The notes under the pieces were generated by a model, which saw nothing but the letters and a program-made list of their open reading frames with translations, ran no database searches and was not told the DNA's origin. Positions 5,777 to 42,314 of a DNA stretch of 43,347 nucleotides are shown one piece after another. The position numbers and the translations under genes are program-made. The stretch spans positions 1 through 43,347 of the forward strand of contig JAKBJL010000005.1 in the NCBI GenBank assembly GCA_021836035.1, in the 5' to 3' direction. This DNA comes from a bacterium (GTDB taxonomy: Bacteria > Patescibacteriota > Microgenomatia > JAMCZE01). How positions within the stretch are numbered: the first letter of the stretch is position 1; each line of letters begins with the position of its first letter.

Positions 5777-8431
5777 ATGAAGAAATATTTCCGTTCGGCT
5801 GTCTTTAACTTTTCTTTTTTATTTCTACTTTACTTTGCTCTTCCCGTATCCGCCCAGAGCGCTCCGACAATTTCTTCCATCGCCGACAACCGCGCCGGTT
5901 ACCCTAACAGCCAAATTCCGAAATATGAAAAACTGGAAATTTCCTTCCGGGTCAATACTTCCTCTAACAATCCCTTTTTCCCCTATGACGCCGCGCCGCC
6001 GCCGGGAATAACCGCGGGCCAGGGGATAACGGTTAACGCGGTTTTTACGGCGCCTTCAGGCAAGGTAAGCACCCAACCGGCCTTTTATTACCAGGATTTT
6101 GATTACCAGGTGAAATCCGGACAGGATTGGTTTTACCCGACGGATAGCTTTCCCTGGAAGGTCCGTTTTACTCCCAATGAGGAGGGAAATTGGAAATATG
6201 TATTGTCGGCTCAGGATGCCGGCGGTACCACGTCGGCCGCGGAGCAAACGTTTTCCGTAGCTCCGTCTGCCAACCGTGGTTTTGTCCGGGTCAGCAAAAA
6301 TGACTCCCGCTATTTTGAATATGATGACGGAACCTATTTCCCCGGTCTTTCCTACAATATGAACTATTCCAATATTGATTGGACTAACCCCGTGCAGGCT
6401 AATCAGGCAAATTTCCAGAAAATGGGCCAAAATGGTATTCAGATTATCCGTCACTGGCTATCTCAGTGGGGTATATTTTCTTCAAATGACGTTTCCTGGG
6501 GCTCTGCCCGGAACGGTCCCGATGACGCGGGTATTACCGTTCCCTATATTTCCCAGACAGTAAACGGAGTTAATGTCCAAACCAGGGTAGCGCCCTATCC
6601 CGAGAGCGATGTGGCCATGCGGGCAGAGAATTATTGGGATCCGTGCATGTTCCTCTCCGGTTGGCAGCAGAGTATTCCGATGAAACCTAATACTAAATAC
6701 CATATTTTTATCCGCTACCTGATTCCTCCGGGTCAATATCTCAGCGGAGGAAAACTAACCGCCCGGTTTTCCGGATGGCTCGATAACCCACAATGCGCCG
6801 ACGCGACCAGCGGGGCTTTTTTGCCCTTAACCGGCGATGTCTCTCCCGATACCTCTCCGACAGACAACAACGGCAATGCGGTCTGGTCAATTTTGGAGGG
6901 AACTTTTAATAGCCAGAACCCGCCCTTTAATAATGTTTCGGTGATGCCCCGTTTTTATCTGTCGATTACCGGTCTGGATAATACTAATAGACCCTCTACC
7001 CCGACGGGGGCCGGAGAAAAAATCTTCATCGACCGGGTGGAAATTCGGGAAGACCCAAACGACAGCACCGACCCCTGCCGGAGAGCGGCCGGTTCCGGCT
7101 CGCTGTTCTTAGTCAGCTCGAGGAATTGCGGTATCAACGTTATCGGGAAACCCTGGATGTCCCATTATCAATATGTCGACCAACAACAGTCAGCCCGTTT
7201 TGACAAGGTAGTAGACCTGGCGAAACAAAACGGAGTTTATCTGAAGCTGGTAGTTTTGGAAAAAAACGAATATATCAGTAACCGTACCGATTATAACGGC
7301 AATACCATTCTGGATGGCCAGCCGGCTTGCAGTCAAAACCCGATTCCTCCCGGAACGGAATGTCCGGGAAACCGGTGGTTTTACGGAAATTGGCGATCCA
7401 TGACTAAAATCCGCTGGCTGCAAACCGCCTGGTTTAGGTATCTACAGGCCCGCTGGGGATATTCTCCCAATATTCATTCCTGGGAACTTGTTAACGAGGG
7501 CGATCCCTGGAACGGGCTGCATTATAGTTTGGCTGATGAAATGGCCAAATATATGCATCAGTTCGGCGCAGATTCCCATCTGGCGACGACCTCTTTCTGG
7601 CATTCTTTCCCCAAAGCGAATTTCTGGGCTAATAGTAACTACCCGAATCCGGATTACGCCGATGTCTACCGCTATATTTTTAACGACCAGGCAACTGCCG
7701 TGGACATCGGCGGAAACAATATTGCCGTGGCGCCGCTGGGTGACTATACGGATACAGCGGCGGAAGTACAGAAGCTTAGTATGCTTTTCGGAGCTAAACA
7801 GCAATATGGCGTGAATAAACCGGTGATGAGGGGAGAAACAGGTTTTGTGCTGGCGGGTAATACCGACGGTTGGGACCCGAACCTTGTTAATAAAGATTTA
7901 TCCGGTATCTGGTTATATAACTATATTTGGGCAGGAATAAATCCCGGCGGCCTGATTGAGTCCTATTGGTACGACCGTCCTCATATCTGGAATGACTCTT
8001 CGTATTATGGCCGTATCTTTGACCATCGCGATATTTACGGTACCTATTACCGTTTCATCAAAGACGTACCCCTGTCTAACGGCAAATATGTCGATGCGGC
8101 GGCTACCGTTACCGATCCTAACCTGCGGGTCTGGGGACAAAAAGATACCCCCGACGGTAAAGCCCACCTCTGGATAGCCAATCCCGCCCATACCTGGAGT
8201 AACGTGGTAAACAAGGTGACTATTGCTCCCATTTCCGCAACTATTACCTTAACCGGCTTTACTCCCAACAAAAGCTATCCTCTGGAGTGGTGGGATACCT
8301 ATTCCGGAGCTCCGTCGTCAACTACCAGTGCCGTAACCGACGGAAACGGAAATTTGACGTTTTCCGAACTTCCGATAGTGCCGTTAAAATCGGTACCTAC
8401 CAACCGGGAACTTTTACCCCCGAAGATTTAA
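5777..8431 (+). CDS. secreted multi-domain glycoside hydrolase-like protein (clan GH-A / GH5-like catalytic core after an N-terminal beta-sandwich domain); C-terminus probably frameshifted
   Basis: A signal peptide is present (MKKYFRSAVFNFSFLFLLYFALPVSAQS). The N-terminal YEKLEISF...NPFFPYD resembles DUF5060-type domains, from memory. HSWELVNEGDP looks like a clan GH-A acid/base NE motif, and VMRGETGF is a candidate nucleophile. Confidence 0.65.
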   Translation: MKKYFRSAVFNFSFLFLLYFALPVSAQSAPTISSIADNRAGYPNSQIPKYEKLEISFRVNTSSNNPFFPYDAAPPPGITAGQGITVNAVFTAPSGKVSTQPAFYYQDFDYQVKSGQDWFYPTDSFPWKVRFTPNEEGNWKYVLSAQDAGGTTSAAEQTFSVAPSANRGFVRVSKNDSRYFEYDDGTYFPGLSYNMNYSNIDWTNPVQANQANFQKMGQNGIQIIRHWLSQWGIFSSNDVSWGSARNGPDDAGITVPYISQTVNGVNVQTRVAPYPESDVAMRAENYWDPCMFLSGWQQSIPMKPNTKYHIFIRYLIPPGQYLSGGKLTARFSGWLDNPQCADATSGAFLPLTGDVSPDTSPTDNNGNAVWSILEGTFNSQNPPFNNVSVMPRFYLSITGLDNTNRPSTPTGAGEKIFIDRVEIREDPNDSTDPCRRAAGSGSLFLVSSRNCGINVIGKPWMSHYQYVDQQQSARFDKVVDLAKQNGVYLKLVVLEKNEYISNRTDYNGNTILDGQPACSQNPIPPGTECPGNRWFYGNWRSMTKIRWLQTAWFRYLQARWGYSPNIHSWELVNEGDPWNGLHYSLADEMAKYMHQFGADSHLATTSFWHSFPKANFWANSNYPNPDYADVYRYIFNDQATAVDIGGNNIAVAPLGDYTDTAAEVQKLSMLFGAKQQYGVNKPVMRGETGFVLAGNTDGWDPNLVNKDLSGIWLYNYIWAGINPGGLIESYWYDRPHIWNDSSYYGRIFDHRDIYGTYYRFIKDVPLSNGKYVDAAATVTDPNLRVWGQKDTPDGKAHLWIANPAHTWSNVVNKVTIAPISATITLTGFTPNKSYPLEWWDTYSGAPSSTTSAVTDGNGNLTFSELPIVPLKSVPTNRELLPPKI

Positions 8432-17796: not shown

Positions 17797-18630
17797 TCAA
17801 GGAGTGGTTATTGGAGTAGAAGCTGGCGTCGGAACCGCTACTGTCGGAGTCGGGGTGGCTGACGGCGTAGCCGTTGGCGCAGGTGTTCCGGAAGGGGTAG
17901 CCACCGGTGTCGGTGAAACCTCCGCCGATTCCGTGCCGCCGTTTTCTCCGCTGGGCGTCGCTAAAGGCTGCTTTTTAAAAATGCCCGTCGCTTTGCCGGG
18001 AATAATATGGATCCATCTGGCGACCAGTGTGCTTCCCGTCGGATCGCCGACCGCCACAATCCTCTGCCCGATCTGTAAAGCGGCGCTACCGGAAGCGTCT
18101 TTGACGTTGCTTTTGATTATCGTCGCAGGAGTAACGGTTACCGTCCAGGTCCGGTCTCTCTGTGTTTGGTGAACCAAAGTTAAAGTTGAGCCGGAAATAT
18201 TGCTGATTAATCCTTCTACTGCCCGCCGGTTTAATTCGGCGGAAGTAGTTGCCTTCCGGACAAAAATTTTCTTTGCCCGCTTGCCGCTGGACGTCGCTGT
18301 CCCGCTTGTCGTGCTCTCGATGATAACCAGATCATCGGTTTTAATATCCCTTAACCTTAAAGACTTGCCGCCGGGACCGTAAACTTTAGTGTCCGTCCGC
18401 GTTTCCACTGTCTGTTCCGTATCAGTATTTTTATTGCCGCGAACCACGACCGCTTGGGGTTGAACCTTGGCAACGCTGCCCATCACCGGCTTATTATATT
18501 TTTTACCCGCTTGTCCCTGGTTTCCGCGGTCCAAAGAATTCTGGCTCTTAGCCAGAACCGGAAAAGTCAAAACCAAACAAAGCAGAGCAACAAAAGTAAC
18601 AAAAATGATATTTTTCCTTAAAGTTCTCAT
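17797..18630 (-). CDS. secreted protein with a Pro/Thr-rich C-terminal linker
   Basis: It has a signal peptide from the ATG at 18630 (MRTLRKNIIFVTFVALLCLVLTFPVLAKS) and the tail TPVATPSGTPAPTATPSATPTPTVAVPTPASTPITTP. The track start at 18660 would overlap the upstream gene. Confidence 0.6.
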   Translation of the reverse strand: MRTLRKNIIFVTFVALLCLVLTFPVLAKSQNSLDRGNQGQAGKKYNKPVMGSVAKVQPQAVVVRGNKNTDTEQTVETRTDTKVYGPGGKSLRLRDIKTDDLVIIESTTSGTATSSGKRAKKIFVRKATTSAELNRRAVEGLISNISGSTLTLVHQTQRDRTWTVTVTPATIIKSNVKDASGSAALQIGQRIVAVGDPTGSTLVARWIHIIPGKATGIFKKQPLATPSGENGGTESAEVSPTPVATPSGTPAPTATPSATPTPTVAVPTPASTPITTP

Positions 18631-18634
18631 ATTT

Positions 18635-19096
18635 TTAAGAACCGCTGGTGTCGTAAACAACGCTCATCATCAGTTTCTTATCATCGCTGCCGTCGCCTAA
18701 AGCGCTGATGGTTAAAAAATTAATACCGCCGTCTAAATTAACATTGGCCGTAAAATTTCCATGGTTATCACTTTCTACCGTATTCTCGTCATTGTCGGTA
18801 AAAGCGACCACCGTGGTATTCGGCAGGGTCCGGCCGCTGACGGTCAGATTTTTTTCGTTTACTACCGTGCCGTCGCTCGGATTAGTTACCTCCAGAAAAA
18901 GCGGCCGGGCAGCGACTTGCTGCGGCTGAGGAGACGGAGCCGCGGTTTGCGGCTTGGTTAATTGGATCGCCAACAAAATACCCCCGGCAACCAAAAACAA
19001 GGCGATAAGGCTTACCGCCACGGGAACAACCATGCCATAACTTTGGAACCTTTCTTTAACAGAAGCCAACTTTGCTTTAAGCGTTTCTAAATTCAC
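18635..19096 (-). CDS. membrane-anchored protein with an Ig-like beta-rich ectodomain
   Basis: It has one N-terminal TM segment (VVPVAVSLIALFLVAGGILLAIQL). It is tightly packed between capA and the PT-rich gene. Confidence 0.55.
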   Translation of the reverse strand: MNLETLKAKLASVKERFQSYGMVVPVAVSLIALFLVAGGILLAIQLTKPQTAAPSPQPQQVAARPLFLEVTNPSDGTVVNEKNLTVSGRTLPNTTVVAFTDNDENTVESDNHGNFTANVNLDGGINFLTISALGDGSDDKKLMMSVVYDTSGS

Positions 19097-22771: not shown

Positions 22772-23926
22772 TTACCCAAACAGGACACCATAACGATGAT
22801 CCAAATCAGATAAGTGCGAATGAAAGCTCGTCGAAACGGTATTATGCCCATATCTTTTTATCCATTGTTTGGTGTCTTTAATAAAATATGATATTTCTTC
22901 GGACGGCACACCAGAAAGTCGAGTGTCCTCATAGTAAATTCGTCCAAGTACGGTTCTTCGACATTTGGGACAACTTCCACAAGTGTTTTCACTTAAACAT
23001 GCTTTTGCCAATTCCGGAGTTTTCCGCTCCCATTTACGCCGGTTGTTGGCAGCCCAGCATTTCCGGGTAAAGCAGTTTTGAACTAAAGGAAGAATAGTGA
23101 TATTTAACTTTTTTTCCAGGTTTAGGATTTCCCCTACCGTTTCAATATCACCGGGATATTCTCCGGTTACATTAATATCCAACCCGGCATCCGATAGCAA
23201 ATTATTGAACAAATTCCACGCGCCTTTGGATTCACTGAAATCACCCTCATCCGGCGAATCTACAAACCCGCCCTCTACAAGCACTTCTTTAATTCCATAA
23301 CGATAGGCCGTTAAAACTACTGTTGCCGCGACCAGTAGATCTCTAACTCTCATAACATCCAATCCCTTAAGTTCCGAACTGTTGATTACTTTAACTTCCG
23401 TAAAGGGAACATTCCATTGTTTACATTGATAGCTGCTTCTCTCAGCTTCATCTCCGGGCAATACACGGTTGAGGTTTCTAAGATGAACCGCTCTGACCAT
23501 TTCTCCACGGGCTAAATGGCTGGCAAGCCGGAAACATGAATCCAATCCACCGGAATGAGAATTGACGATATATGCGCCGTCATTTAGCTTGGATTCGTTT
23601 GAATGAAATTCAAGGTTTAATCTATTGCTGTTTGCAGAAATTTTTGGAGGGCGGTATCCATAATAATCGTAAAGAGCGTTTACTAAATCGGTATAATTGA
23701 CCGGAAAATTTGTTTCAATAATCCGGGGAAAATAAGCGGATACTAAATGCGACAAGGCAACAGTGCGCCACAAGTCCCGGATAACTTTTGGCTGATCAGA
23801 TAAAGATCTTTCTGGATCGACTATCGCGATCTGTTCGTTGTGTTTTTTTCCTTTAAGTTTCAGACTAAACGGATTCTTCGGTGAAATATTAACCTCGCAT
23901 TTATCCGCTTGTTCGATTCTGGTCAT
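22772..23926 (-). CDS. QueC-family PP-loop ATP pyrophosphatase-like protein with a ~120 aa N-terminal extension
   Basis: It has VNSHSGGLDSCFRLA (the SGGxDS PP-loop). The C-terminal Cys cluster is QNCFTRKC...CGSCPKCRR, as in the QueC zinc site. Confidence 0.7.
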   Translation of the reverse strand: MTRIEQADKCEVNISPKNPFSLKLKGKKHNEQIAIVDPERSLSDQPKVIRDLWRTVALSHLVSAYFPRIIETNFPVNYTDLVNALYDYYGYRPPKISANSNRLNLEFHSNESKLNDGAYIVNSHSGGLDSCFRLASHLARGEMVRAVHLRNLNRVLPGDEAERSSYQCKQWNVPFTEVKVINSSELKGLDVMRVRDLLVAATVVLTAYRYGIKEVLVEGGFVDSPDEGDFSESKGAWNLFNNLLSDAGLDINVTGEYPGDIETVGEILNLEKKLNITILPLVQNCFTRKCWAANNRRKWERKTPELAKACLSENTCGSCPKCRRTVLGRIYYEDTRLSGVPSEEISYFIKDTKQWIKRYGHNTVSTSFHSHLSDLDHRYGVLFG

Positions 23927-24048: not shown

Positions 24049-24076
24049 AAAAAAACATTCCGAACTTTAGTTCGGA
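24049..24076 (-). terminator. Rho-independent terminator of the signal-peptidase-like gene
   Basis: The minus strand reads UCCGAACU-AA-AGUUCGGA followed by AUGUUUUUUUG. It overlaps repeat copy B. Confidence 0.65.
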
Positions 24077-24095: not shown

Positions 24096-24183
24096 GTCAG
24101 CAATATAGGGTACCACATTAATTTTATCTATCAGCCCCAAATGGAAGGTATTCGAACATTTTGTGCTCAATTAGTGGTATCTT

Positions 24184-24735
24184 TTAATACCTGAAGGCTA
24201 TTTTTCCGACAATATCCTGTTTACCTATGAAACCTAAACTACGTGAATCAATACTATTATTTCTGTTGTCGCCCATCATAAAATAGCTATTATCGGGAAT
24301 TGTAATTTCTTGGCCTTCGTCTAAAATCTTTGGTCCTCCCGTATCCTCAATTTTTCCAGTTGTTTCAGATATATCTATAATCGCACTTTTATTGGCTGTC
24401 GTTGTTACAGTACCAGGTTGTAGATAACTTTCAGCTAGTACCGCGCCATTCAGATACACTTTACCGTTTTGTATTTTTATTTTGTCTCCTGATAGAGCAA
24501 TTATTCTAGCAATACCTGAATAATGGGGATTCTGAGTGTAGCCAAAAGTTACAACATCACCTCGTTGGGGCGAAGAAAAAGTATATGCTAGTTTATTCAC
24601 AAGAAATCTCTCACCACTCTTATAAGTTGGTTCCATTCCAGGTCCATTTATTGATACAGGTTTGAAAGTGACAAATAGGGTTACTAATAAACCAGCTAAT
24701 ACTCCAATAACCACGAACTGTAAAATCTTTGACAT
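24184..24735 (-). CDS. type I signal peptidase (S26) homologue lacking the Ser/Lys catalytic dyad; predicted pseudo-peptidase
   Basis: It has an N-terminal TM segment. Box B reads NGPGMEPTY where SM-x-PT is expected. Box C RGDVVTF is intact. Box D reads GIARIIALSGD where Y/F-I/V-K-R-x-x-G-x-PGD is expected. Box E MMGDNRNNSIDSR is intact. Confidence 0.75.
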   Translation of the reverse strand: MSKILQFVVIGVLAGLLVTLFVTFKPVSINGPGMEPTYKSGERFLVNKLAYTFSSPQRGDVVTFGYTQNPHYSGIARIIALSGDKIKIQNGKVYLNGAVLAESYLQPGTVTTTANKSAIIDISETTGKIEDTGGPKILDEGQEITIPDNSYFMMGDNRNNSIDSRSLGFIGKQDIVGKIAFRY

Positions 24736-24741
24736 AATTTA

Positions 24742-24770: not shown

Positions 24771-24996
24771 GTAGTGTGTTATATAGAGATGGCTATGAGA
24801 AAAGGCTATTTGAATTTTCAGCAGACATGGTTGGAATCGAGCTTGCTCTTCTTTAAATACCATGTGGTCGTGGATGAAGGCAAAACTTGCCGAAACGGCT
24901 AATCTAGCTAGTCGATGGGTGAGTCGGTTTGGCAGTGTTTTATGCGGAAATCGTTCGCGCCTATGTGTGGTACTAAAATGTAGGTCTTAGACTATA

Positions 24997-27864
24997 TTAA
25001 CGCCCTAAATCCTTATCAAGGTGGCAATGTTTATATTTCTTCCCACTCCCGCACCAGCAGGGATCGTTTCTCCCCGGCTTTTTAATTCCCGGCGCGGAAT
25101 TCCCTACGGGTAAGCCGCTCGTCCTTGAACTTGAACTTGCACTTTGTTTTATTTGCTGTGCTTCCTCTTTTACTCCTGCCTCGATATTTTCAATCTGCGC
25201 CGCATTCGTAGTCGCCCGCTGCATTTGGGCGATCTGCTCAGGCGTCGCGACGGCAATTTTATAAATCCGGTGGACGATTTCGTAATCAACAGAGGCAATC
25301 AATTTTTCAAACATTGTAAAGGCTTCCGCCTTATATTCAACCAACGGATCCCTTTGGGCGTAACCCCGCAGCCCTATGCCTTCGCGCAAATCGTCGATTT
25401 CCTCGAGATGTTCCATCCATAAAGCGTCTATTACCCGAAGCATTTCCTGTTGTTCAATATAACGGGTAATTTTCCCGCCCAATTGTTTCTCTCTTTGTTC
25501 ATAAATATCATGCGCAATTTTTTGTAATAAAGGGCCTAGGGATGAGGAGCTGGCAGCTAGTTGAACAACGATTTGCTTTTTCGAATTATCATCAAAGGGA
25601 ATGATCGTCGAAAATTCTTCAATGATTTTTTCCGTGCCGTTTTTATCCCCTGTTTCGACTACCCCATATTGTTCTTTGCCGCCGGAATTGATAGCCACCA
25701 GATTTTCTATTTCCTTATCAATTTTGGCTAAAATTTCTTCTTTCAGCCAATGACCATTTTCCGCGGCCTCCCCATTCCCGTCTTCCGTTTCCATTTCCTT
25801 CCCCTCGCTTGCCCCGAGTGAAATCGCAGGGTCAGCGGCTAGCCCCGTCTCATTAGCCCCCCTATTTAAAGCGCTCAACACTTTCCGTCTTAATCCATAG
25901 ATGATCTCCCTCTGCTTGTTCATCACGTCGTCATATTCCAAGAGGTGCTTGCGGGAATCAAAATTAAATTGCTCTACTTTCGATTGAGCCTGCTCAATCG
26001 ACTTGCTGACCATACCGTGTTCCAGGGGCTGGTCTTCGGGAATATTAAAAAGGGTCATGAGCCGCGCTACCTGTTCCCCGCCGAAAAGGCGCATAACGTC
26101 ATCGTCCAGCGCGACAAAAAACCGGCTAGAACCGGGGTCCCCCTGGCGCCCCGCCCGGCCCCGCAGCTGGTTATCAATCCGTCGCGACTCATGCCGTTCC
26201 GTGCCGATCACATGCAGGCCGCCAAGCGTGACTACTTCGTCATGGTCCTTCTGCCAGGCTTTCCACTCCGGACTGCCGATCAGCGGACGCCCGTCTGCCT
26301 GTTTGGGCGTTACCCCGCCTAAAATAATATCGACGCCGCGGCCGGCCATGTTGGTCGCGACGGTAACGGCGCCGCGCTTTCCCGCCTGGGAAATAATCAG
26401 GGCCTCCTTTTCGTGCTGTTTGGCATTTAAAACCTGGAAAGGAATACCTTTGTGGCGCAGAAACTGGGAAATAATCTCATTTTTCTCGATAGAGGTGGTT
26501 CCGATTAAAACCGGCCGGCCGATTTTATGCATTTCCTCAATTTCCCGGACGACCGCGGAATATTTCGCCCTCTGCGATTTATAAACCTGGTCGGTAGAAT
26601 CATTCCGAACCATCTGCTTATTAGTCGGAATGGCAATTACTTCCAGATTGTAAATTTTATGAAACTCTTCCGCCTCCGTCGCCGCGGTCCCCGTCATCCC
26701 GGCCAACTTTTCGTATTTCCTAAAATAATTTTGCAGGGAAATAGTCGCCAAAGTCCTGCTTTCCTGCTGGATGGGAACACCCTCTTTGGCTTCGACAGCC
26801 TGGTGAATTCCTTCGCTCCAGCGCCGTCCCGGCATCAGTCTCCCGGTAAATTCGTCAACAATTATCACCTCGTTGTCGCGGACTATATAATCTTTTTCGC
26901 GGTGGTATAGGGTTCTGGCTTTCAAAGCCGCTTCAACATGATGAACCGTCGCGAAATCTTTTTCGTAAATATCTTTAGATCCTAACATCTGCTCAATTTT
27001 GCCGATCCCGTGGTCGGTAAGGTTGGCAGTATGCATTTTTTCGTCAACGACATAATCCAGTTTCGCCGTTAAACCTTCCACCAAACGCGCATATTCGTAA
27101 TATTTCTGTGTCGGCTCCGCGTCGGGGGCGGAAATAATATGCGGCGTCCGGGCTTCATCGATTAAAACCGAGTCCACTTCGTCAACTATCGCGTAATGGA
27201 AATCGCGCTGGACCAGCTCCGCTTCTTCGCGGGCCATATTGTCCCGGAGATAGTCAAAACCGAACTCGGAATTAATACCGTAGGTAATATCCGCACCATA
27301 GGCTTCTTTGCGGGATACCGGACGCAGGTGGCGCAGGCGCCAATCGGGCGCGTTTTCATCCGTAAATTCCGGATCATAAACGAAAGAGGCTTCGTGAATA
27401 ATCGCCGCGCAGGACAATCCCAGAATATGATAAATCGGGCCCATCCAGCCGACCCCAACCCGCGCCAGGTAATCGTTAACGGTAACCAGGTGTGCGCCTT
27501 TGCCGGTCAGGGCATTTAAATAAAGTGGCATGGAGGCGGTTAAAGTCTTCCCTTCCCCCGTTTTTTGTTCAGCGATTTTTCCCTGGTGCAAAGCAATTGC
27601 GGCCATCACCTGGACATCAAAATGGCGCTCGTTATTAACCCGGGCGCTGGCTTCCCGGACCAGGGCATAAGCCTCGGGGAGCAGCCCGTCGAGAGAACCG
27701 CCCTTAGCCAGTTTCTCTTTCAACTTCGCTGTTCTTTTGGCAAAATCGGCTTCTTTCAGCTTCTTGACCTCTTTTTCCCAAGCATTAACCTCCGTTACCA
27801 ACGGCATTAACTTTTGAACCTGGCGTTCATTGCTGTCAATAATTTTCCCAATAAAATCCAGCAT
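24997..27864 (-). CDS. secA: preprotein translocase ATPase SecA
   Basis: It has TGEGKTLTASMPLYLNAL, DEVDSVLIDEARTP, TNMAGRGVDI and the C-terminal zinc motif CWCGSGKKYKHCH. Confidence 0.98.
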   Translation of the reverse strand: MLDFIGKIIDSNERQVQKLMPLVTEVNAWEKEVKKLKEADFAKRTAKLKEKLAKGGSLDGLLPEAYALVREASARVNNERHFDVQVMAAIALHQGKIAEQKTGEGKTLTASMPLYLNALTGKGAHLVTVNDYLARVGVGWMGPIYHILGLSCAAIIHEASFVYDPEFTDENAPDWRLRHLRPVSRKEAYGADITYGINSEFGFDYLRDNMAREEAELVQRDFHYAIVDEVDSVLIDEARTPHIISAPDAEPTQKYYEYARLVEGLTAKLDYVVDEKMHTANLTDHGIGKIEQMLGSKDIYEKDFATVHHVEAALKARTLYHREKDYIVRDNEVIIVDEFTGRLMPGRRWSEGIHQAVEAKEGVPIQQESRTLATISLQNYFRKYEKLAGMTGTAATEAEEFHKIYNLEVIAIPTNKQMVRNDSTDQVYKSQRAKYSAVVREIEEMHKIGRPVLIGTTSIEKNEIISQFLRHKGIPFQVLNAKQHEKEALIISQAGKRGAVTVATNMAGRGVDIILGGVTPKQADGRPLIGSPEWKAWQKDHDEVVTLGGLHVIGTERHESRRIDNQLRGRAGRQGDPGSSRFFVALDDDVMRLFGGEQVARLMTLFNIPEDQPLEHGMVSKSIEQAQSKVEQFNFDSRKHLLEYDDVMNKQREIIYGLRRKVLSALNRGANETGLAADPAISLGASEGKEMETEDGNGEAAENGHWLKEEILAKIDKEIENLVAINSGGKEQYGVVETGDKNGTEKIIEEFSTIIPFDDNSKKQIVVQLAASSSSLGPLLQKIAHDIYEQREKQLGGKITRYIEQQEMLRVIDALWMEHLEEIDDLREGIGLRGYAQRDPLVEYKAEAFTMFEKLIASVDYEIVHRIYKIAVATPEQIAQMQRATTNAAQIENIEAGVKEEAQQIKQSASSSSRTSGLPVGNSAPGIKKPGRNDPCWCGSGKKYKHCHLDKDLGR

Positions 27865-29898: not shown

Positions 29899-30585
29899 TT
29901 ACTCAGTATCAGGATGCTTTTTTTTCCTCGAACAAAAGACTACGGTATTATAAATAGTATGCGTATAATTTACCCTAATCTTCTTTGTTATTACAAAAAA
30001 AGGCGCTAATTTGTCAAGGAATTTGCCAGGTTCAAAATTGCTTGATTTGGTCGTCAAAAGGTTAAAAATCAGGGTCCCGGTCTTGGTTAGGTTTTGATCT
30101 AGTTTGTTAAAGAAAACCCGATGGGTAAATCTTTTATCAAAACTCCGGCCATTATAGAGATCCACGGCTATCAGGTCAAATTTTGCCTGTTTAGAATTAT
30201 TCAGAAAACTTAAGGCATCATCGTTAACAATTTTCAGGGGCGCTGTTTTTCCCAAACCGAAATATTTTTTTCCCAAAGCAAGCATCACCGGATCAATCTC
30301 TACCCCTACTATCTGCGCTTGAGGAAATTTCTTAGCGAGATAATTTACCATCGCTCCGCAGCCCAACCCTAAAATCAGCAGCTTGCCGCCCCGCTCCATT
30401 TCTATATTGTCCGTTGCTTTCTTCCATAAACCGGCAACTATCGGTCCGGATTGTTCAAAACCGCCGACCCAGGCGGCGTAGTGATTTCCAAATTTAACTA
30501 TTTTGATTTTACCGTTAAAGTCCGAAGGTTTAACTTCCATCGTCCGGGGAAAGAAGAAGCTGTATAAGTCAGGATTTATTTTCAT
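29899..30585 (-). CDS. spermidine-synthase-like / class I SAM-dependent transferase
   Basis: It has LILGLGCGAMVNYL (SAM motif I), VGVEIDPVML and DLIAVDLY. The start is uncertain: TTG at 30609, ATG at 30585 or ATG at 30540. Confidence 0.65.
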   Translation of the reverse strand: MKINPDLYSFFFPRTMEVKPSDFNGKIKIVKFGNHYAAWVGGFEQSGPIVAGLWKKATDNIEMERGGKLLILGLGCGAMVNYLAKKFPQAQIVGVEIDPVMLALGKKYFGLGKTAPLKIVNDDALSFLNNSKQAKFDLIAVDLYNGRSFDKRFTHRVFFNKLDQNLTKTGTLIFNLLTTKSSNFEPGKFLDKLAPFFVITKKIRVNYTHTIYNTVVFCSRKKKHPDTE

Positions 30586-31570
30586 AACGGGCCAGAGCGA
30601 TATGGACAATTTCCTCTAAAAATTGCGGGTAGGCCAGGCCCGCTGCTTTTGCCGAACGGGAAGCGCCGTCTTCCAACCCGATGCCCGGATTGGCGTTTAC
30701 TTCCAAAATATACGGTACGCCGGATTTATCCAGGCGGATATCTACCCGACCGTAATCGCGGCACCCGGTCAAACGGTAAGCCGAAAGGGCGGTATCCGCG
30801 ACTTTTTTTCTGACCTGTTCCGCTAAATCCGCCGGGCAAATACCGTTGGTTTCTTTATATTTCCAACTATCAATCTCCCATTTGGCCGCGAAATCCACTA
30901 CTTTATAATGATTTTTAAATGAAGGGCCGAAAATTATTTCGGAAATAGGCAATACCCTCGCCTGTTCCCCGTTTCCCAAAACCGTTACATTTAGTTCCCG
31001 CCCCTCAATGTATTCTTCAACCAACACCGGATCATCATATTCATCCCTGATTATCTGCATCTGTTTTTCGGCTGCCGGGCAGGTTTTTACTACAGAGGCC
31101 GCCCCAATACCCAAACTGGAATCTTCCGTAGCGGGTTTAACCACCAGGGGAAAAGATAATGCGGGGTCTAACCGCTCGCAACCAGAAAAAACCTGGTATT
31201 TCGGTGTCGGAATATCATGGGCGATTAATAATTTTTTAGTGGCTACTTTTTCCGTTGTCAAAATAATCGCTTTGGCGTCGGAACCGCTGAAGGGCTTGCC
31301 GCTTCTTTCCAGAAAAGCCGCCACATCGGCTTCGCTCTTGGCCATACCGCCGATACCAAAAGCGGAATTGAAATAAAAATCAGTGGGGTGGTTCTTTAGC
31401 CGCTTCACCGATTGTTCGTCAATCGCCAACAAATCCACAGTGTTCCCCAAGCTTTGTAAACCCCGGGCGATAGCCTCCGCGGTTTTTACCGTATCTTCAT
31501 CGGCCAAAATATCCAGGGGATTACCCACAGCCACTTTTCTGACCACATTGTAGGTCACGGTAATTTTCAT
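30569..31570 (-). CDS. D-alanine--D-alanine ligase-family ATP-grasp enzyme (substrate unknown)
   Basis: It has PLVVKPATEDSSLGI, VLVEEYIEGRELNVTVLG and GCRDYGRVDIRLDKSGVPYILEVNANPG. Its start overlaps the upstream stop as ATGA. Confidence 0.8.
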   Translation of the reverse strand: MKITVTYNVVRKVAVGNPLDILADEDTVKTAEAIARGLQSLGNTVDLLAIDEQSVKRLKNHPTDFYFNSAFGIGGMAKSEADVAAFLERSGKPFSGSDAKAIILTTEKVATKKLLIAHDIPTPKYQVFSGCERLDPALSFPLVVKPATEDSSLGIGAASVVKTCPAAEKQMQIIRDEYDDPVLVEEYIEGRELNVTVLGNGEQARVLPISEIIFGPSFKNHYKVVDFAAKWEIDSWKYKETNGICPADLAEQVRKKVADTALSAYRLTGCRDYGRVDIRLDKSGVPYILEVNANPGIGLEDGASRSAKAAGLAYPQFLEEIVHIALARYENKS

Positions 31571-32931
31571 TGCAGTTCCGTAAGCTCTTCCCGATAAATT
31601 TTGAGGAGAGGATTTTTCAACTCGTAAGGTAAGGTGCTGGTAGTATGAATACCGAAAAAACGCTCCCGCAATTCCCCTTCCCGGGCCCGGGCTTCAGCTA
31701 AATAAGTTTTGGCAAATCTTTTCATTAAAGCACCCTTAACTCCCCTACGGTAAGATAAAAGAAAAGCCAGGAGTTGTTCGTCACGGTCCAACCCGCTTTG
31801 ATCCGTCGGGCTGCTTTTGGGGACATCTCCGGGAAACAAAGTAAACAAATTTATTTTTCGCTCCGAGAGCATATTTTCATTAAATCCTACCCTATGGGGA
31901 CTGATCCCCAGGCCGGTGAGGTAAACGTAAATCCGGGCGCATTTACTGCACTTGCCGCACCATCTTTTGGTTTTGGCGACACTCTCTTCCTGAGGACAGG
32001 AAGTTTGGTATTTCGCAATAGCCGGATAACGCGAGTGCAGAATTTTTATGATCGCTAAATCATTCAGCGGCTCAATCAGGCTGGAAAAGACCGTATTGCT
32101 CCCTAACATTCTTACCAGATTGTTTTGGAAAAGCAGCCAATTGCGGTTTTGTTCAAAAGTGGGATTAATAATAAAACCCTCCTTATCGGTATAAGTACTG
32201 TTGCACTCCTGTTCATGAGACCAAAAGGTAAACCGGGCCCTCGAGCCGAAAACAAAAGGCAATAATAAAAGTGTATATTGGGTCATGAGAAGATCCCAGC
32301 CCCACCAATTACCGAAAGTCTGCCGCAGTCTTCCGGCAGAGACGGGAAAAAATTGAACATCAACCCCGAATTCGTTTAAAAAACGTTCTGCCAGTTTTTT
32401 CTTATGCCGGTTTTCGTAGGGGCTGCGCGGCTCGCGGAAAAATAGCGGATAGGGTTGAATTCCCAATTCCCGGGTCAGGGCAAAGGTTAATAAACTATCC
32501 TTGCCGAAAGAAAAAGGAATCACCGCGCGGTTTTTGGTATTGCGATTCACATGGGCAAACCGCGTCAAACGCGGACGCCCGGTAAATTGGATACTTAAAT
32601 GACGGTTGTAAAAAAGACGCAACAGATCAGAGGTACGAACATTTTCTTCTCCTAATAAAGTCGTCTCTCCTAAGGAATAAATCATGCCCTCAAAAAAGAA
32701 GGGCTCAAATTGCGGCGGCGGAAAATTATAAACTATATGCTTATGGCCGTTTAAACAAAGATGCATTGTCAGCGAATAAGCCAAAGCATCGGCGAAATTC
32801 TGATGATAAACCTCCGGAAATTCTCTCCAAATCGAAATAGGGTAGGTAATTTGGTAAGTTTTTCTTTCTAAGGAGATTTCGACACCGGTAGGAATTACTT
32901 TCCGAAATACTTTTGTTGCGTTCTGTTTCAT
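31567..32931 (-). CDS. PP-loop-like (adenine nucleotide alpha-hydrolase superfamily) protein with a C-terminal CxxCxxC knuckle
   Basis: It has AVIPFSFGKDSLLTFAL (an SxGxDS variant of SGGxDS) and WCGKCSKCARIY. It is the first gene of a three-gene coupled operon. Confidence 0.55.
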   Translation of the reverse strand: MKQNATKVFRKVIPTGVEISLERKTYQITYPISIWREFPEVYHQNFADALAYSLTMHLCLNGHKHIVYNFPPPQFEPFFFEGMIYSLGETTLLGEENVRTSDLLRLFYNRHLSIQFTGRPRLTRFAHVNRNTKNRAVIPFSFGKDSLLTFALTRELGIQPYPLFFREPRSPYENRHKKKLAERFLNEFGVDVQFFPVSAGRLRQTFGNWWGWDLLMTQYTLLLLPFVFGSRARFTFWSHEQECNSTYTDKEGFIINPTFEQNRNWLLFQNNLVRMLGSNTVFSSLIEPLNDLAIIKILHSRYPAIAKYQTSCPQEESVAKTKRWCGKCSKCARIYVYLTGLGISPHRVGFNENMLSERKINLFTLFPGDVPKSSPTDQSGLDRDEQLLAFLLSYRRGVKGALMKRFAKTYLAEARAREGELRERFFGIHTTSTLPYELKNPLLKIYREELTELQ

Positions 32932-32992
32932 CGTGGGCCGTTTCTACGGCCTAAGAATTATTTATTTAAAAAGATTATTTTAGTCTTTTTTT

Positions 32993-33020
32993 AGAATAAC
33001 AATTGTAGCGCAATTGTCAA
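32993..33020 (-). promoter_or_regulatory. promoter of the PP-loop/ATP-grasp/SAM-enzyme operon
   Basis: The minus strand reads TTGACA (33020-33015), a 16-nt spacer, then TATTCT (32998-32993). It is overlapped by two CAATTGT copies (33000-33006 and 33011-33017). Confidence 0.5.
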
Positions 33021-33158
33021 GTGCAAACAGCAAATTTTTATTTTTCATTTATTTATTAGATCAGCTGGCCGCGCATTCCTGCTGCCTGTTTGCTCACCGC
33101 GAACCGGAAAGGATATGGTCTGATTCTCGCTTCGGGGGGAAAGGAAATAAAATAAGAT

Positions 33159-34505
33159 TTATCTCGGGGTAATTACTTTTTTGCCGACATAATCCTGAAG
33201 TACTTCCGGGACTTTTACGGAACCGTCAGGATTCTGATAATTTTCCAATATTGCTATAATTGTCCGCGGCCCGGTGATACCCGTATCATTAACATTATGG
33301 ACAAACTTTTTCTGCCCATCGCTATCCGTGAATTTGGTGTTAAACCTCCGCGCCTGAAAATCCCCCGCATCGGTATTGCTACCCATTTCTACAAAGACCT
33401 GTTGTATCGGGAGCCAAACTTCAAAATCATATTTCCGGTAAGTTGCGAAATAACCGGAATCACCGCTGCACATTAAAATCACGTGGTAAGGAAGTTTCAA
33501 CTGTTGCAGCATCCACTCGTTAATATGTAACAAATGTTCCTGCATTTCCGGAGAACCTTCGGGCGTTGTCAGGGCATCCATCTCCAGCTTGTCGAACTGA
33601 TGGACCCGTTTTATTCCCCGGACATCTTTTCCCCAGGAACCGACTTCCGAGCGAAAGCAGGAAGTTACCGCAAAAAATTTTTGGGGCAAATCTTTATAAT
33701 CCAGGGTTTTATCCATATAATAGGCAAAAAGGGGCGGTTCTGAGGAACCAACCAGATAGAGATCGCTTCCTTCTTCTACATATTTATTTTCAATACGGTA
33801 AACCTGGTCCGCATCACCCGGAAAATGTGACGTGCCGTAAAGGGTTCTGGCACGAACCATTAGGGGAACAACCATCGGGGTAAAACCATCCTTAACCAGT
33901 TTATTTTTTAAAAGTTCAAAAATCCCGTACTGGATAAGCGCTGCTTCATTTTTTAAATAATAAAAACGGCTACCGGAGACAACACTACTTTGTTCTACGT
34001 CAATAATATCGAGCATTTTCCCAATTTCAACATGATCCCGGCCGGTAAAATCATGGGTGGGCATCTCTCTCTTGGAAAAATCCTTCAATCCCAGTTGCTC
34101 CTTTTTAAAATATCCCATGGCGGGACTCCAGGCTTTTATTTCCAGATTGTCGTTTTCGCCCGTGCCGATTGGGACATCAGCAGCCAGCATATTCGGAACC
34201 CAATCCATCACTTCCTGCCACTCTTTTTGGACTTCCGCAAATTCATCTTCCAACACCTCAATGCCCTCTTTTATCTTTTTCCCTTCCGCGGTTTTTTCCG
34301 GTGTGCGCTTTTGGGGATCCTTTAGCTCCTGCGCCAACTTGTTGCGGGCGGAACGTATGGTATCAATTTCGGCCATTAGTTTGTTTTTACGGCCGTCGAG
34401 AAGCAATAATTTATTTATATCCGCTTTTTGCGGATCCACCCGGCGGTTGAGAATATTCTGTTTTACCTCCTCCGGATGTTCGCGGATAAATTTTATGTCC
34501 AACAT
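33159..34505 (-). CDS. serS: seryl-tRNA synthetase
   Basis: It has MLDIKFIREHPE, a coiled-coil arm, SGSRFYYLKNEAA, TSCFRSE and TGPRTIIAILENYQ. Confidence 0.97.
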   Translation of the reverse strand: MLDIKFIREHPEEVKQNILNRRVDPQKADINKLLLLDGRKNKLMAEIDTIRSARNKLAQELKDPQKRTPEKTAEGKKIKEGIEVLEDEFAEVQKEWQEVMDWVPNMLAADVPIGTGENDNLEIKAWSPAMGYFKKEQLGLKDFSKREMPTHDFTGRDHVEIGKMLDIIDVEQSSVVSGSRFYYLKNEAALIQYGIFELLKNKLVKDGFTPMVVPLMVRARTLYGTSHFPGDADQVYRIENKYVEEGSDLYLVGSSEPPLFAYYMDKTLDYKDLPQKFFAVTSCFRSEVGSWGKDVRGIKRVHQFDKLEMDALTTPEGSPEMQEHLLHINEWMLQQLKLPYHVILMCSGDSGYFATYRKYDFEVWLPIQQVFVEMGSNTDAGDFQARRFNTKFTDSDGQKKFVHNVNDTGITGPRTIIAILENYQNPDGSVKVPEVLQDYVGKKVITPR

Positions 34506-34547
34506 ATTTAAAATTTAATAGGGTTCTTTACCTGCCACCATATTATA

Positions 34548-36695
34548 TTACCTTCTTTTGTATGCTACCAACAACCCGCAGCCGTAAAGAGCGATAGTTA
34601 GATACACCAGACTTTGCATACCCAGGAGAAAAGATAATATTTCCAGAAATCCCCCGATTACTGATCCCAGAAGATTGCTTCCCAAGACCGGAGCTTTTAC
34701 CCGGGACTCGAGATAAAACTTGGCAAAAATTATCGCAGAAAAAAGATGGGGAACAGTAAAGAAAGGAATGGATAGGGCGTATTTTTGCCAGCCGGAAAAG
34801 TTATTGAAAAAAGATGCCGGAATAAATAACTGCATAAGGAAGCTCAAAAATAACAGGATTACGGAAAGACGGAGGGGTGCTTTTTTAGCAACCGTAAGAA
34901 AGTTCGCCAGCAGGATAAAAATCATCACCCCGGTAATAATAAAAAGGTTCGTAGTCCAGGTGTTCCCGAAAACCAGGCTTGCCTTGCTGATGGTCCTGAA
35001 TTCGTAAAGCATAAAGCCGGCTCCGAAAAATAACATCGGCCAGTTAAGTCCGGATAAGTTTCCGGTATACCGCAGGGCCATAAACAAACAAAGGATGACC
35101 AAAAGCCCGATAATTAAATGCAGTGTCGGTAGTTGGGGCCTGCTTAAATAAATGTAGGGCCAGTCGTCGGACAGATTGTTAATCGAAGCCGGACTTACCG
35201 CGCGGTAATCCTGAACGTTGCGAGACACAAAGGAGGCCAGGTCGGTATTCTTTGCCAGAATATTATTTATAGTATTGCGGTCTTTACCGGTAACGAAGGC
35301 TATTCCCCCCCAACCATAGGCTCCCTCGCTGCGGACTTCAAAAACTTTAGGGGCAAAACCAAAGGCCTCCGTCATTGTCTGCTGAATCCTAGTCCCGATC
35401 CAGGGCCGGGTGACTTCAAAGGTCAAGAATAAGACACCGTCCGGTTTAAGTAAACTTTTTACCAGTCGCAGCGATTCTTCCGTATATAAATAATTATCCA
35501 GTTGGACATTTGTCAGCCCGGAACTGACAGTATGGGAATCAGCCAGACCCATGATAATCAGGTCGTATTTTTTACGCGCTTTGACCCGTTCCATATACCC
35601 ACGGCCATCGTCCACTGTGACGGCAACCGTGGGGGAGGAATAAGGTAATTCCGGATGATATTTCCGTCCCAGCTGGATTATCACCGGGTCAATTTCAACC
35701 ACTTCAACCGATTTTGCTTTTGCCCGAACGGCGGCCGCGGCATCATTTCCGCCCCCGCCGCCGATAATTAAAAGCTTGTCCGGCTGCGGTTTAAAATAAT
35801 AAGGCAAATCGTATTGGTTGGCATATGGCTTATCCTGGGGGTGCTTTATAAAAACAGCGTCAATAAATGTTTTTTTCTCCTGCAGGCTTTTGGCAGAGAG
35901 ATCAAGAAGCCCCATATAACCAGCGTTATTGACCTCCAAATACCAGCCGCTGGGCTTCTGTTTTACGCCGTAAATTACCGATAGGGTTAGTTTCTGGTAA
36001 GGGGACCAGAAAGTCACCGGTTTCTCGTAGGGCTGATAACTATTTTTGGGGATTAAGAGTACTACGGAAGCAAGAAAAAACATTAAGGCATAAGTCCTGG
36101 CTTTTTCTGTTTCAGATAACCAAAAAAGAAAAAACATGGCCAGTACCAGGCCAAAAAACGGAGAAATACCAAGATAAGAAAAGGCATTAAAAACCCACAT
36201 CCCCAGAATGGAACCGAGGATATTTACCGAATAACCTAAAAGCGGCGATTTCGCCTGATTTAATTTTCGGCCGATTTGTTGGCCGATCGGTACGAAAGAA
36301 AAGGCTATCAGGGCAAAAATGCCTAAAGTTAATATAATCCCGATAATAATCCCGGTTTTGGAAAAAGTATTTACCTGCAGCCAGATATAAGATTCGCTCA
36401 GGGGTGATAGCATCTCGGTGATACCGGAAAATATCTTAAATTCCAAATTGGGAAGGCGGATAATATATTTCCAGACTAAGACCACCAGAACGGCAAAGAA
36501 AGCTATGGAAGAATATTCTAAAGTAATTTTTTTCTTGAGCATCATGCCCAAACCCGTTCCTAAAAATACCGCTAATAAGATATAGTTGGAAAGGTAAGCA
36601 AAAATCCGGATTTCCGTTCCCATAAGTCTGATGATCAGAAGTTCCAAAAAGAGAGCGAGGGAACTAAGCAGAAATATTTCCAGGTATTTTTTCAT
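34548..36695 (-). CDS. polytopic membrane protein with a central spermidine-synthase-like SAM-binding domain
   Basis: It has about 7 N-terminal and 5 C-terminal hydrophobic segments. The central domain has LLIIGGGGGNDAAAAV, VEVVEIDPVII and YDLIIMGLADS. Its start overlaps the HD gene stop as ATGA. Confidence 0.75.
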   Translation of the reverse strand: MKKYLEIFLLSSLALFLELLIIRLMGTEIRIFAYLSNYILLAVFLGTGLGMMLKKKITLEYSSIAFFAVLVVLVWKYIIRLPNLEFKIFSGITEMLSPLSESYIWLQVNTFSKTGIIIGIILTLGIFALIAFSFVPIGQQIGRKLNQAKSPLLGYSVNILGSILGMWVFNAFSYLGISPFFGLVLAMFFLFWLSETEKARTYALMFFLASVVLLIPKNSYQPYEKPVTFWSPYQKLTLSVIYGVKQKPSGWYLEVNNAGYMGLLDLSAKSLQEKKTFIDAVFIKHPQDKPYANQYDLPYYFKPQPDKLLIIGGGGGNDAAAAVRAKAKSVEVVEIDPVIIQLGRKYHPELPYSSPTVAVTVDDGRGYMERVKARKKYDLIIMGLADSHTVSSGLTNVQLDNYLYTEESLRLVKSLLKPDGVLFLTFEVTRPWIGTRIQQTMTEAFGFAPKVFEVRSEGAYGWGGIAFVTGKDRNTINNILAKNTDLASFVSRNVQDYRAVSPASINNLSDDWPYIYLSRPQLPTLHLIIGLLVILCLFMALRYTGNLSGLNWPMLFFGAGFMLYEFRTISKASLVFGNTWTTNLFIITGVMIFILLANFLTVAKKAPLRLSVILLFLSFLMQLFIPASFFNNFSGWQKYALSIPFFTVPHLFSAIIFAKFYLESRVKAPVLGSNLLGSVIGGFLEILSFLLGMQSLVYLTIALYGCGLLVAYKRR

Positions 36696-40124: not shown

Positions 40125-40484
40125 GTGATAAATACGTTTAGAAACTTATTAAACTTCTCTTATCAAAGAAATTTAATAGGGGCTGCGGGTTTTTATATAG
40201 CATATCTAGTATTATTATTGCTCGTCTTTATGATACTTGGGGCAATCACAGGATTAATCTTGCCAGGTGTTGCCTATGAGGCGGGCTTTCGTGTAGGTAA
40301 TATCGGAGCCATAATAATTTGTCCACTTTTATCATTTTTAATTTTAAAAGAAAAGAAATTATTAAATAATTTTGGCCTTATTATCTTGGCAATATTATCT
40401 GGTTTAATAGCAGTATTTGTTGGCGCGATAGGTGGCCTAATTCCGATAGCTTACCTAACAACAAGACCTACCAATACCAACTAA
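40125..40484 (+). CDS. hypothetical small membrane protein, very AT-rich (GTG start)
   Basis: It has three or four hydrophobic segments. My hand count gives about 27% GC over 40125-40184, against about 55% in secA. Confidence 0.45.
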   Translation: MINTFRNLLNFSYQRNLIGAAGFYIAYLVLLLLVFMILGAITGLILPGVAYEAGFRVGNIGAIIICPLLSFLILKEKKLLNNFGLIILAILSGLIAVFVGAIGGLIPIAYLTTRPTNTN

Positions 40485-42305: not shown

Positions 42306-42314
42306 ATTTTTTGC

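Follow-up and report, generated by a model that had tools for sequence, protein, structure and literature searches.

The DNA analysed here is a 43,347-nucleotide stretch of contig JAKBJL010000005.1 (assembly GCA_021836035.1) from a bacterium of the Microgenomatia, a lineage within the Candidate Phyla Radiation (CPR); the whole stretch is referred to as the window. The minus strand of the window contains a gene encoding a homologue of signal peptidase I (SPase I, peptidase family S26) that lacks both residues forming the Ser/Lys catalytic dyad. The gene is located 261 nucleotides downstream of secA (24997..27864). The coding sequence and the elements of the encoded protein are:

24184..24735, minus strand: coding sequence for a dyad-less protein of the S26 (signal peptidase I-like) type, with an ATG start and 183 residues, identified from the list of open reading frames (ORFs), PF10502, TIGR02227 and the AlphaFold2 fold
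24667..24729, minus strand: N-terminal transmembrane anchor, residues 3-23 (ILQFVVIGVLAGLLVTLFVTF), behind a basic MSK, predicted as a helix by AlphaFold2; the MSK(K) start is kept in the clade
24625..24645, minus strand: degenerate box B, GPGMEPT, with Gly33 at the position of the nucleophile, according to the SpsB and LepB alignments and the codons; Gly or Ala in the clade
24544..24564, minus strand: box C, RGDVVTF, residues 58-64, kept; with R58 and D60 invariant and G59 found in 18 of the 19 family sequences, a pattern shared with the canonical enzymes
24484..24516, minus strand: degenerate box D, GIARIIALSGD, with Ala76 at the position of the general base, according to the alignments and the codons; Ala, Gly, Ser or Phe in the family
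24298..24417, minus strand: family-specific insertion of about 40 residues (about 107-146) ahead of box E, delineated from alignments, AlphaFold2 secondary structure and conservation
24241..24273, minus strand: box E, GDNRNNSIDSR, residues 155-165, fully kept according to the alignments and per-site conservation

The protein encoded in the window exceeds the curated thresholds of both profiles of the S26A family, PF10502 (Peptidase_S26 of Pfam; E-value 2.8e-42, 145 bits against a cut-off of 22.9, residues 5-183) and TIGR02227 (sigpep_I_bact of NCBIfam; 154 bits against a cut-off of 47). HMMER alignments to SPases with solved structures place Gly33 (query 'inGPGMept') on Ser36 of SpsB ('ikgeSMdpt') and Ser90 of E. 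coli LepB ('ipsgSMmpt'), and Ala76 (query 'ysgiARii') on Lys145 of E. coli LepB ('dyiKRav') and the corresponding Lys of SpsB ('y--vKRvi'). The window protein has neither the Ser nucleophile (Gly33) nor the Lys general base (Ala76) of active S26A enzymes, and it also lacks the combination of a Ser nucleophile with a His general base that forms the endoplasmic reticulum (ER)-type dyad. Because both the nucleophile and the base are gone, the protein is not expected to cleave signal peptides by the Ser/Lys mechanism. The codon of Gly33 is GGA (tcc on the plus strand, 24637-24639), at least two changes away from any Ser codon, and that of Ala76 is GCT (agc on the plus strand, 24508-24510), three changes away from AAA or AAG. 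The initial annotation of the window had described a Gly in place of the Ser of box B, an Ala in place of the Lys of box D, and the retention of boxes C and E and of the membrane anchor. The alignments, the codons and the predicted helix of residues 3-23 agree with it on all of these points, and the profile alignment that it had called for places no Ser, Lys or His at the catalytic positions.

The remainder of the SPase signature is preserved. Arg77 corresponds to R146 of E. coli, and box E contains the equivalents of E. coli G272, D273, R275, S278, D280 and R282. Within the family, D156, R158, D163, S164 and R165 of box E are invariant, and G155 and S161 are each present in 17 of 19 sequences. 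By the known topology of SPase I, the N-terminus of the window protein probably faces the cytoplasm and the domain is exposed outside. As judged from these sequence features, the family is S26A by descent and a non-peptidase homologue.

The AlphaFold2 model of the window protein, calculated from an alignment of 20 sequences, has the SPase fold, with a mean predicted local distance difference test score (pLDDT) of 88.7 and a predicted template modelling score of 0.83. The least confident block of the model is formed by residues 31-40, which include the degenerate box B (pLDDT 68). The best matches of the model in the Protein Data Bank (PDB), as determined using Foldseek, are SpsB and LepB (E-value ~1e-8, probability 1.00). 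The superposition on SipA of S. pyogenes (4n31) has a template modelling score of 0.78 normalised to the target, a root-mean-square deviation of 2.7 Å and 22% sequence identity, and the match to human SEC11 (7p2q) is marginal (E-value 0.029).

A search of 5.8 billion proteins for homologues of the window protein identified twelve further clusters with 47-81% sequence identity, below which the identity drops to 40% or less. The only names attached to the close relatives are Candidatus Roizmanbacteria and Gottesmanbacteria GW2011_GWC2_39_8. In the unbiased list of the top 120 proteins, which was used for the dyad counts, the dyad is missing from all 13 members of the clade (47-100% identity), and both Ser and Lys are present in all 107 other proteins, a split that exceeds chance. 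The Ser position of the clade members is occupied by Gly or Ala and the Lys position by Ala, Gly or Ser; two N-terminally truncated gene calls lack the column of the Ser. The public call of one of these two (P0002, locus L047 268-819) starts at Met34 and comprises 150 residues. The real ORF is 33 codons longer upstream, begins with MSKVLQF and carries the transmembrane anchor and GPGME, so that the short call had hidden the degenerate box B. By comparison, of the 113 proteins that can be aligned from the canonical CPR SPase family represented by protein P0015, 112 have both Ser and Lys.

The gene is intact and conserved. A protein identical to that of the window is encoded on five independently assembled contigs, including one from NCBI assembly GCA_027371575.1, and the Logan contigs of two sequencing runs do not differ in a single letter within the gene. 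The ratios of nonsynonymous to synonymous substitution rates (dN/dS), determined by the Nei-Gojobori method for the two least saturated pairs of sequences, are 0.12 (dS 0.94) and 0.08 (dS 1.33), and all the ORFs are intact. The dyad-less S26 family is under purifying selection. The argument of the initial annotation that the substitutions are not a single-base sequencing error is strengthened by these results, as the codons of Gly33 and Ala76 are at least two changes from any Ser codon and three from either Lys codon, the five contigs agree, there are no variant letters, and the loss of the dyad is family-wide. In a scan of genome contigs, at least one family member among the matches listed (L050) was located on a 998-kb Microgenomates contig (JBAQNJ010000001.1). 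Scanning of viral contigs did not identify any family members, the best match having 39% identity. The family is so far confined to Microgenomates, that is, to CPR bacteria of the Roizmanbacteria and Gottesmanbacteria type.

The insertion in front of box E distinguishes the family from the canonical SPases of both Firmicutes and CPR bacteria, which have no counterpart of it in the alignments. Thr111 within the insertion is invariant, and strands 117-121 and 127-131 are predicted to form a β-hairpin. The conserved motif (I/L)xDEGQE(I/L)xIP of the insertion runs into box E and was chosen as a search pattern specific to the family. When 1.84 billion representatives were searched exhaustively with the family profile, twelve clusters formed at 50% identity matched over the full length, including the insertion, with E-values from 3e-87 to 1.5e-49. 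They were followed by a gap, below which proteins of the canonical type matched in two separate stretches. Four distant relatives that possess the insertion (P0246, P0247, P0248 and P0262) retain the Ser and have Gly or Ser at the Lys site. The wider family has Gly, Ala or Ser at the Ser position and Ala, Gly, Ser or Phe at the Lys position. Since both sites vary among small residues, there is no substitute catalytic residue at the dyad positions.

Among the best 150 representatives of the profile search, a sample biased by the query profile, only 69 have both Ser and Lys, 22 have Ala and Lys, 24 have Ser together with Ser, Gly or Ala, and three have Ser and His, which is the ER-type dyad on a bacterial scaffold; the others are mixed. 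A rough neighbour-joining tree was calculated for 146 representatives, the sampling of which was biased towards the query profile. The dyad state is clustered in this tree, with 15 inferred changes compared to about 49 after shuffling. The 18 representatives of the clade around the window protein (P0001) all lack the Lys, and ten of them retain the Ser. Since the insertion-bearing relatives that still have the Ser are already without the Lys, the distribution suggests that the Lys was lost first and that the Ser was then free to drift, which we treat as a lead.

Several of the best 150 representatives (proteins P0249-P0386) are 290-400 residues long and contain two S26 domains or N-terminal extensions. 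Wherever these proteins are named, they are annotated as signal peptidase I.

Almost all of the residues conserved in the dead family belong to the fold core of the active enzymes, namely the RGD of box C, the equivalent of R146, the GL/PG and E-x-Y motifs, and box E. In the cleft, I29, M34 and I75 of the S1 core are retained, and most cleft positions are as variable as the domain as a whole. The only clear family-specific gain outside the insertion is Lys25, whose position in the canonical CPR enzymes is occupied by an invariant Gln. The HMMER alignment pairs Lys25 with Glu82 of E. coli, at the membrane-proximal start of strand β1. We considered the possibility that Lys25, the sole basic residue conserved specifically in the family, is a relocated catalytic base, and judged it unlikely, as the position aligned with Glu82 should be far from the catalytic centre.

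The window protein resembles the canonical S26A enzymes LepB and SpsB and those of B. anthracis and E. faecalis in its matches to hidden Markov models, its arrangement of a transmembrane anchor followed by a domain, boxes C and E, the equivalent of R146, and its fold; the nearest active SPases share 38-43% of its residues. It differs from them by the absence of Ser90 and Lys145, by the lack of constraint on the equivalents of D142, Y143, Q85 and V132, and by the insertion and Lys25 of its own family. The canonical CPR SPases around P0015 are similar to it in their length of about 185 residues, short N-terminus and part of the variable region preceding box E, with 40-43% identity. The P0015 family possesses an invariant Gln at the position of Lys25, an invariant Asp at the position of D142, and an invariant catalytic Lys, none of which are found in the dead family. 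An enzyme of the P0015 type is likely to represent the ancestral type of the dead family. The ER-type and archaeal Ser-His SPases (Sec11, SipW) also lack a Lys at the position of the general base, and a few of the wider relatives have Ser and His. However, the window protein is built on the bacterial P-type scaffold, has Ala rather than His at the position of the base, and has no Ser.

The nearest precedent for an S26 protein without the dyad is SipA/LepA of S. pyogenes, a protein of the S26 fold that sortase-B-dependent polymerisation of pili requires, whose peptide-binding cleft is conserved, and for which no binding partner has been demonstrated (PMC4049620). SipA and LepA (4N31, 4K8W) share with the window protein the S26 fold, a membrane anchor, a location outside the cell, and the replacement of both dyad residues (Asp48 and Gly85 in SipA; Gly33 and Ala76 in the window protein), and they too are kept by selection, presumably in a non-catalytic role. 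The profile of the window family matches active SPases in the PDB with E-values of 9.5e-26 to 3e-18, whereas SipA and LepA are matched with E-values of 2.6e-6 and 3.3e-5, and only over the C-terminal 36 residues. SipA has lost the equivalents of Gly272 and Ser278, which the window family keeps together with the rest of box E; the cleft is conserved in SipA and relaxed in the window family. SipA/LepA are encoded in a pilus island together with a sortase and pilins, which Pfam searches found neither within about 10 kb in the window nor at the nine other loci. The β-hairpin insertion is specific to the window family, which belongs to CPR bacteria and not, as SipA, to pathogens from the Firmicutes. 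On balance, the family appears to descend from a canonical bacterial SPase, with an origin separate from that of streptococcal SipA. The initial annotation had compared the protein to SipA as a dead SPase I paralogue serving as an assembly chaperone. SipA does stand as the nearest known precedent, but the results do not support a link with pili and sortase, a relationship with SipA, a decay of box E, or a conserved cleft. We found no description in the literature of dead S26 proteins in CPR bacteria.

The composition of the gene departs from that of its surroundings. The GC content is 0.361 and that of third codon positions (GC3) 0.245, compared with a GC content of 0.466 for the window and a GC3 of about 0.5 for the neighbouring genes. 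The gene has the lowest GC3 and the second-lowest GC content of the 37 ORFs in the window, in line with its earlier description as the most AT-rich coding stretch nearby. The contigs of the relatives have GC contents of 0.38-0.41, and the relatives are at roughly ambient composition. Because the GC content of the window copy departs from that of the window while the relatives match their surroundings, the window copy looks foreign. The contig carrying the closest homologue, with 81% amino acid identity (JGI contig Ga0172371_10007841), has no flanking gene in common with the window. The features surrounding the gene are:

24049..24076, minus strand: terminator-like hairpin TCCGAACTAAAGTTCGGA (hairpin 24076-24059) with a run of T, a pattern match from a consensus scan, about 110 nucleotides past the stop codon
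24062..24091, no strand assigned: branch point of the assembly graph in the Logan contigs of runs X1 and X2, separating the window form with the S26 gene from an alternative form
24991..25019, minus strand: promoter-like site TTGATA-17-TATAGT with 10 of 12 matches, overlapping the end of secA, about 250 nucleotides upstream of the ATG

The sequence of the window occurs in two mine-drainage metagenome runs (X1, X2). In X1, the segment 22764-24091 has a depth of 81.6, the window-type continuation 38.9 and the alternative contig 41.8; the corresponding depths in X2 are 47.2, 38.9 and 6.66. Along the alternative contig, the counterpart of secA position 25433 comes after only 384 nucleotides, compared to 1341 nucleotides in the window, and the contig is then collinear with secA at about 80% nucleotide identity. 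In this form, secA therefore joins the hairpin and the downstream gene almost directly, which leaves no space for the 552-nucleotide gene. This demonstrates a presence/absence polymorphism, in which a co-occurring relative lacks the S26 gene at the same secA junction. Therefore, because of the polymorphism, the foreign composition and the absence of synteny, the gene is regarded as an accessory insertion. A gene that is foreign, non-syntenic and missing from a relative is unlikely to encode the sole essential signal peptidase of the organism.

The S26 gene, together with its AT-rich flanks, is enclosed by an imperfect inverted repeat of 25 nucleotides with 72% complementarity (24102-24126 and 24974-24998), which is located slightly inward of the secA stop codon and the branch point of the graph. 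As a scar of the insertion the repeat is weak and not convincing, and it could have occurred by chance in AT-rich DNA.

The segment 22764-24091, composed of ORF 22772..23926 and the hairpin, is about 99.7% identical between the two co-occurring genomes, with four single-nucleotide polymorphisms in X1, whereas the nucleotide sequences of their secA genes have diverged by about 20%. The graph branches at both ends of the segment, and the depth of the segment equals the sum of both flanking variants. The 1.3-kb segment looks like it was recently exchanged. The ORF (22772..23926, minus strand, 384 residues) has no match in Pfam or NCBIfam and is below the window average in composition (GC 0.416, GC3 0.374). 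Its product contains a PP-loop-like SGGxDS motif ('NSHSGGLDSC') and a C-terminal cluster of Cys residues ('CGSCPKCRR'), reminiscent of ATP pyrophosphatases of the QueC/ExsB type.

The terminator-like hairpin probably ends the transcription unit, as far as a pattern match can indicate. The evidence from promoter-like sites is weak, since six were found in the region compared to 3.1 expected by chance. The sequence preceding the ATG (24736-24760, minus strand; coding strand ...TTTTCTCCTGTTAGATTTAAATT-ATG) has no purine tract resembling a Shine-Dalgarno sequence, and the AGGAG at 24750-24754 belongs to the other strand.

The initial annotation had pointed to sortase, pilin or other secreted-polymer genes as possible companions of the dead paralogue. 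Pfam searches did not detect any such genes within about 10 kb in the window and at the nine other family loci. The nine other neighbourhoods contain:

Neighbourhood 1: LysM-M23 peptidase upstream and SNase downstream
Neighbourhood 2: RibD_C and polysaccharide genes
Neighbourhood 3: LAGLIDADG and CofD
Neighbourhood 4: HEPN
Neighbourhood 5: an LspA-RluD cluster
Neighbourhood 6: LysM
Neighbourhood 7: SurA_N_3 protein
Neighbourhood 8: PMT_2 and hemerythrin
Neighbourhood 9: genes without known function

A conserved operon partner was rejected, as all ten neighbourhoods, including that of the window, differ. SecA, LspA, SurA_N_3 and LysM or LysM-M23 each occur once or twice among the neighbours, which is only anecdotal. 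Genes for the envelope and for secretion thus turn up repeatedly, with no partner conserved.

Based on the dyad loss, the conservation of the family and the polymorphism at the secA junction, a role of the protein can be proposed. The gene, which is accessory in this genome, probably encodes a non-catalytic binding or assembly module of the membrane surface that belongs to a dead S26 family maintained by selection. Our confidence in this proposal concerns almost entirely the conserved dead paralogue, and to a much smaller extent the specific binding role. The product would be a single-pass membrane protein with an extracytoplasmic S26-fold domain that does not perform Ser/Lys cleavage. The family would have descended from a canonical SPase, probably by losing first the Lys and then the Ser, and would have gained the β-hairpin insertion; the fold core and box E would have been kept while the residues of the specificity pocket relaxed. 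The domain may bind proteins or peptides at the external side of the membrane. We speculate that it could escort an exported protein or assist in its assembly as an accessory factor, or be a partner of the secretion and processing machinery. Signal peptides would be cleaved by a canonical SPase encoded elsewhere, and the gene would have been acquired laterally between secA and the next gene. Proteins encoded in the window have classical cleavable signal peptides (for example 5777..8431, cleavage between ...ALPVSA and QS, and 17797..18660, cleavage between ...PVLA and KS), so that the organism should require an active SPase I. A search with P0015 showed that SPases with the canonical Ser and Lys are plentiful among CPR bacteria and Microgenomates, and we infer that an active paralogue is encoded in the same genome.

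Several observations weigh against this proposal. A six-frame hmmsearch did not find a second S26 gene in the 43-kb window, nor did hmmsearch find one in loci L003-L011, L047-L050 and L134. The gene context of the ten neighbourhoods does not point to any partner or client. The catalytic inertness of the protein is itself deduced from its sequence. The cleft (equivalents of E. coli F84, Q85, V132, D142 and Y143) has a mean entropy of 1.50 in the dead family compared to 1.46 for the whole domain, and its positions are far more variable than in the canonical CPR SPases; at the sites of D142 and Q85, the canonical CPR family shows no variation and the dead family a great deal. A conserved peptide-binding cleft like that of SipA is not supported by this pattern of conservation, and because the cleft is relaxed, SipA-like binding of signal peptides cannot be claimed. 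In active enzymes, G272 and S278 serve the catalytic Lys. Their equivalents are kept in 17 of 19 family sequences even though the Lys is gone, and a model of pure loss of function leaves this retention unexplained.

The alternatives to a binding or assembly module differ in how they account for the same features. In other enzyme families, there are dead paralogues by which live partners are activated or targeted. The protein could likewise be paired with the active SPase of the organism, as its non-catalytic subunit or regulator, rather than be a free-standing chaperone. We consider such pairing possible but doubtful. The retention of the fold core, box E and the equivalent of R146 would fit a protein that docks at the membrane like an SPase, the family is closest to active SPases, and proteins of the SPase fold can form dimers or oligomers in crystals, according to published structures. 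However, none of the ten neighbourhoods contains an adjacent S26 gene, lateral mobility and absence from a close relative would be unusual for an obligate subunit, and the interaction is purely conjectural. An assembly factor for pili of the SipA/LepA type, working together with a sortase, is improbable. The loss of both dyad residues from the same fold and the superposition on 4n31 speak for it, and a complete genome of another Microgenomates lineage was reported to encode a sortase (PMC7143001). Nevertheless, there are no sortase, LPXTG-type pilin or pilus genes within 10 kb at any locus, the profile match to SipA is weak (E-value 2.6e-6 over 36 residues, compared to about 1e-25 for active SPases), box E is intact here and degenerate in SipA, and the cleft is not specially conserved.

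It is even less probable that the protein is still a peptidase that employs other residues, and perhaps the only signal peptidase I of the organism. The absence of a canonical S26 gene from the window and the family loci searched would agree with a surviving peptidase, as would the conservation of the entire box E with its equivalents of G272 and S278, the family-specific and conserved Lys25, and the Ser and His at the dyad positions of some wider relatives. On the other hand, the variation of the dyad sites among Gly, Ala, Ser and Phe indicates that nothing catalytic is positioned there, and Lys25, aligned with Glu82, would lie at the far end of β1, off the catalytic centre. Moreover, the gene is foreign, non-syntenic and missing from a co-occurring relative, unlike a sole essential housekeeping gene, and CPR bacteria and Microgenomates possess canonical Ser/Lys SPases that form a large family. 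It is similarly hard to believe that, in at least some Microgenomates, the protein is the only S26 homologue and supports the removal of signal peptides without the Ser/Lys pair or with residues supplied in trans by a partner or substrate. If it were, the kept G272 and S278 equivalents and box E would be a live active site of a new type. Finally, an artefact of assembly or sequencing, or a decaying, functionless pseudogene, has nothing in its favour except that the catalytic residues are lost and that the composition is atypical. The identical protein on five contigs of independent assemblies, the absence of variants of the gene in two runs, the requirement for at least two to three nucleotide changes per codon, and the intact full-length ORFs in more than 13 lineages with dN/dS values of 0.08-0.12 make its probability negligible, and the conservation data have already refuted it.

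To our knowledge, the dead bacterial SPases studied so far belong to a single lineage, the streptococcal SipA/LepA, the mechanism of which is still unclear. The family described here would be a second, independently evolved family of dead SPases kept by selection. CPR bacteria are ultra-small, have tiny genomes and lead a surface-dependent episymbiotic lifestyle. An envelope protein that is retained and horizontally exchanged among such bacteria is likely to matter for the episymbiotic lifestyle. The natural series from Ser and Lys, through Ser only, to neither of the residues could show how a protease scaffold is repurposed. A hint from the wider search is that, in environmental CPR-like sequences, S26 homologues may commonly be without one of the catalytic residues or without both. 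Because all such S26 proteins are routinely called signal peptidase I, the secretion capacity deduced from annotation may be overstated.

The remainder of the window is an ordinary CPR chromosome, encoding IF-2, NusA, HrcA-GrpE-DnaK-DnaJ, GroEL, RNase HII, SerRS, a class II aminoacyl-tRNA synthetase, GreA and ArsR/ArsM. The region 29899..36695 (minus strand) encodes a 715-residue membrane protein that contains a spermine-synthase-like domain, another, small protein of the Spermine_synth/methyltransferase type, an ATP-grasp enzyme of the D-Ala-D-Ala-ligase type and a 454-residue protein with a weak MurL-epimerase-like match, with SerRS interleaved. This cluster may be a module for the modification of the cell envelope or polyamines. 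A second compositional outlier is a 119-residue hydrophobic ORF without a family match (40125..40484, plus strand; GC 0.336, GC3 0.275), which adjoins tRNA-Glu(CTC) (39766-39840), the sole tRNA gene of the window, and may be another small acquired gene. An ArsR-family regulator is encoded beside an S-adenosylmethionine-dependent methyltransferase with an N-terminal Cys-rich stretch, similar to ArsM (41559..42632, minus strand), and this ArsR/ArsM-like pair fits the mine-drainage origin reported for the runs in which the sequence of the window occurs.

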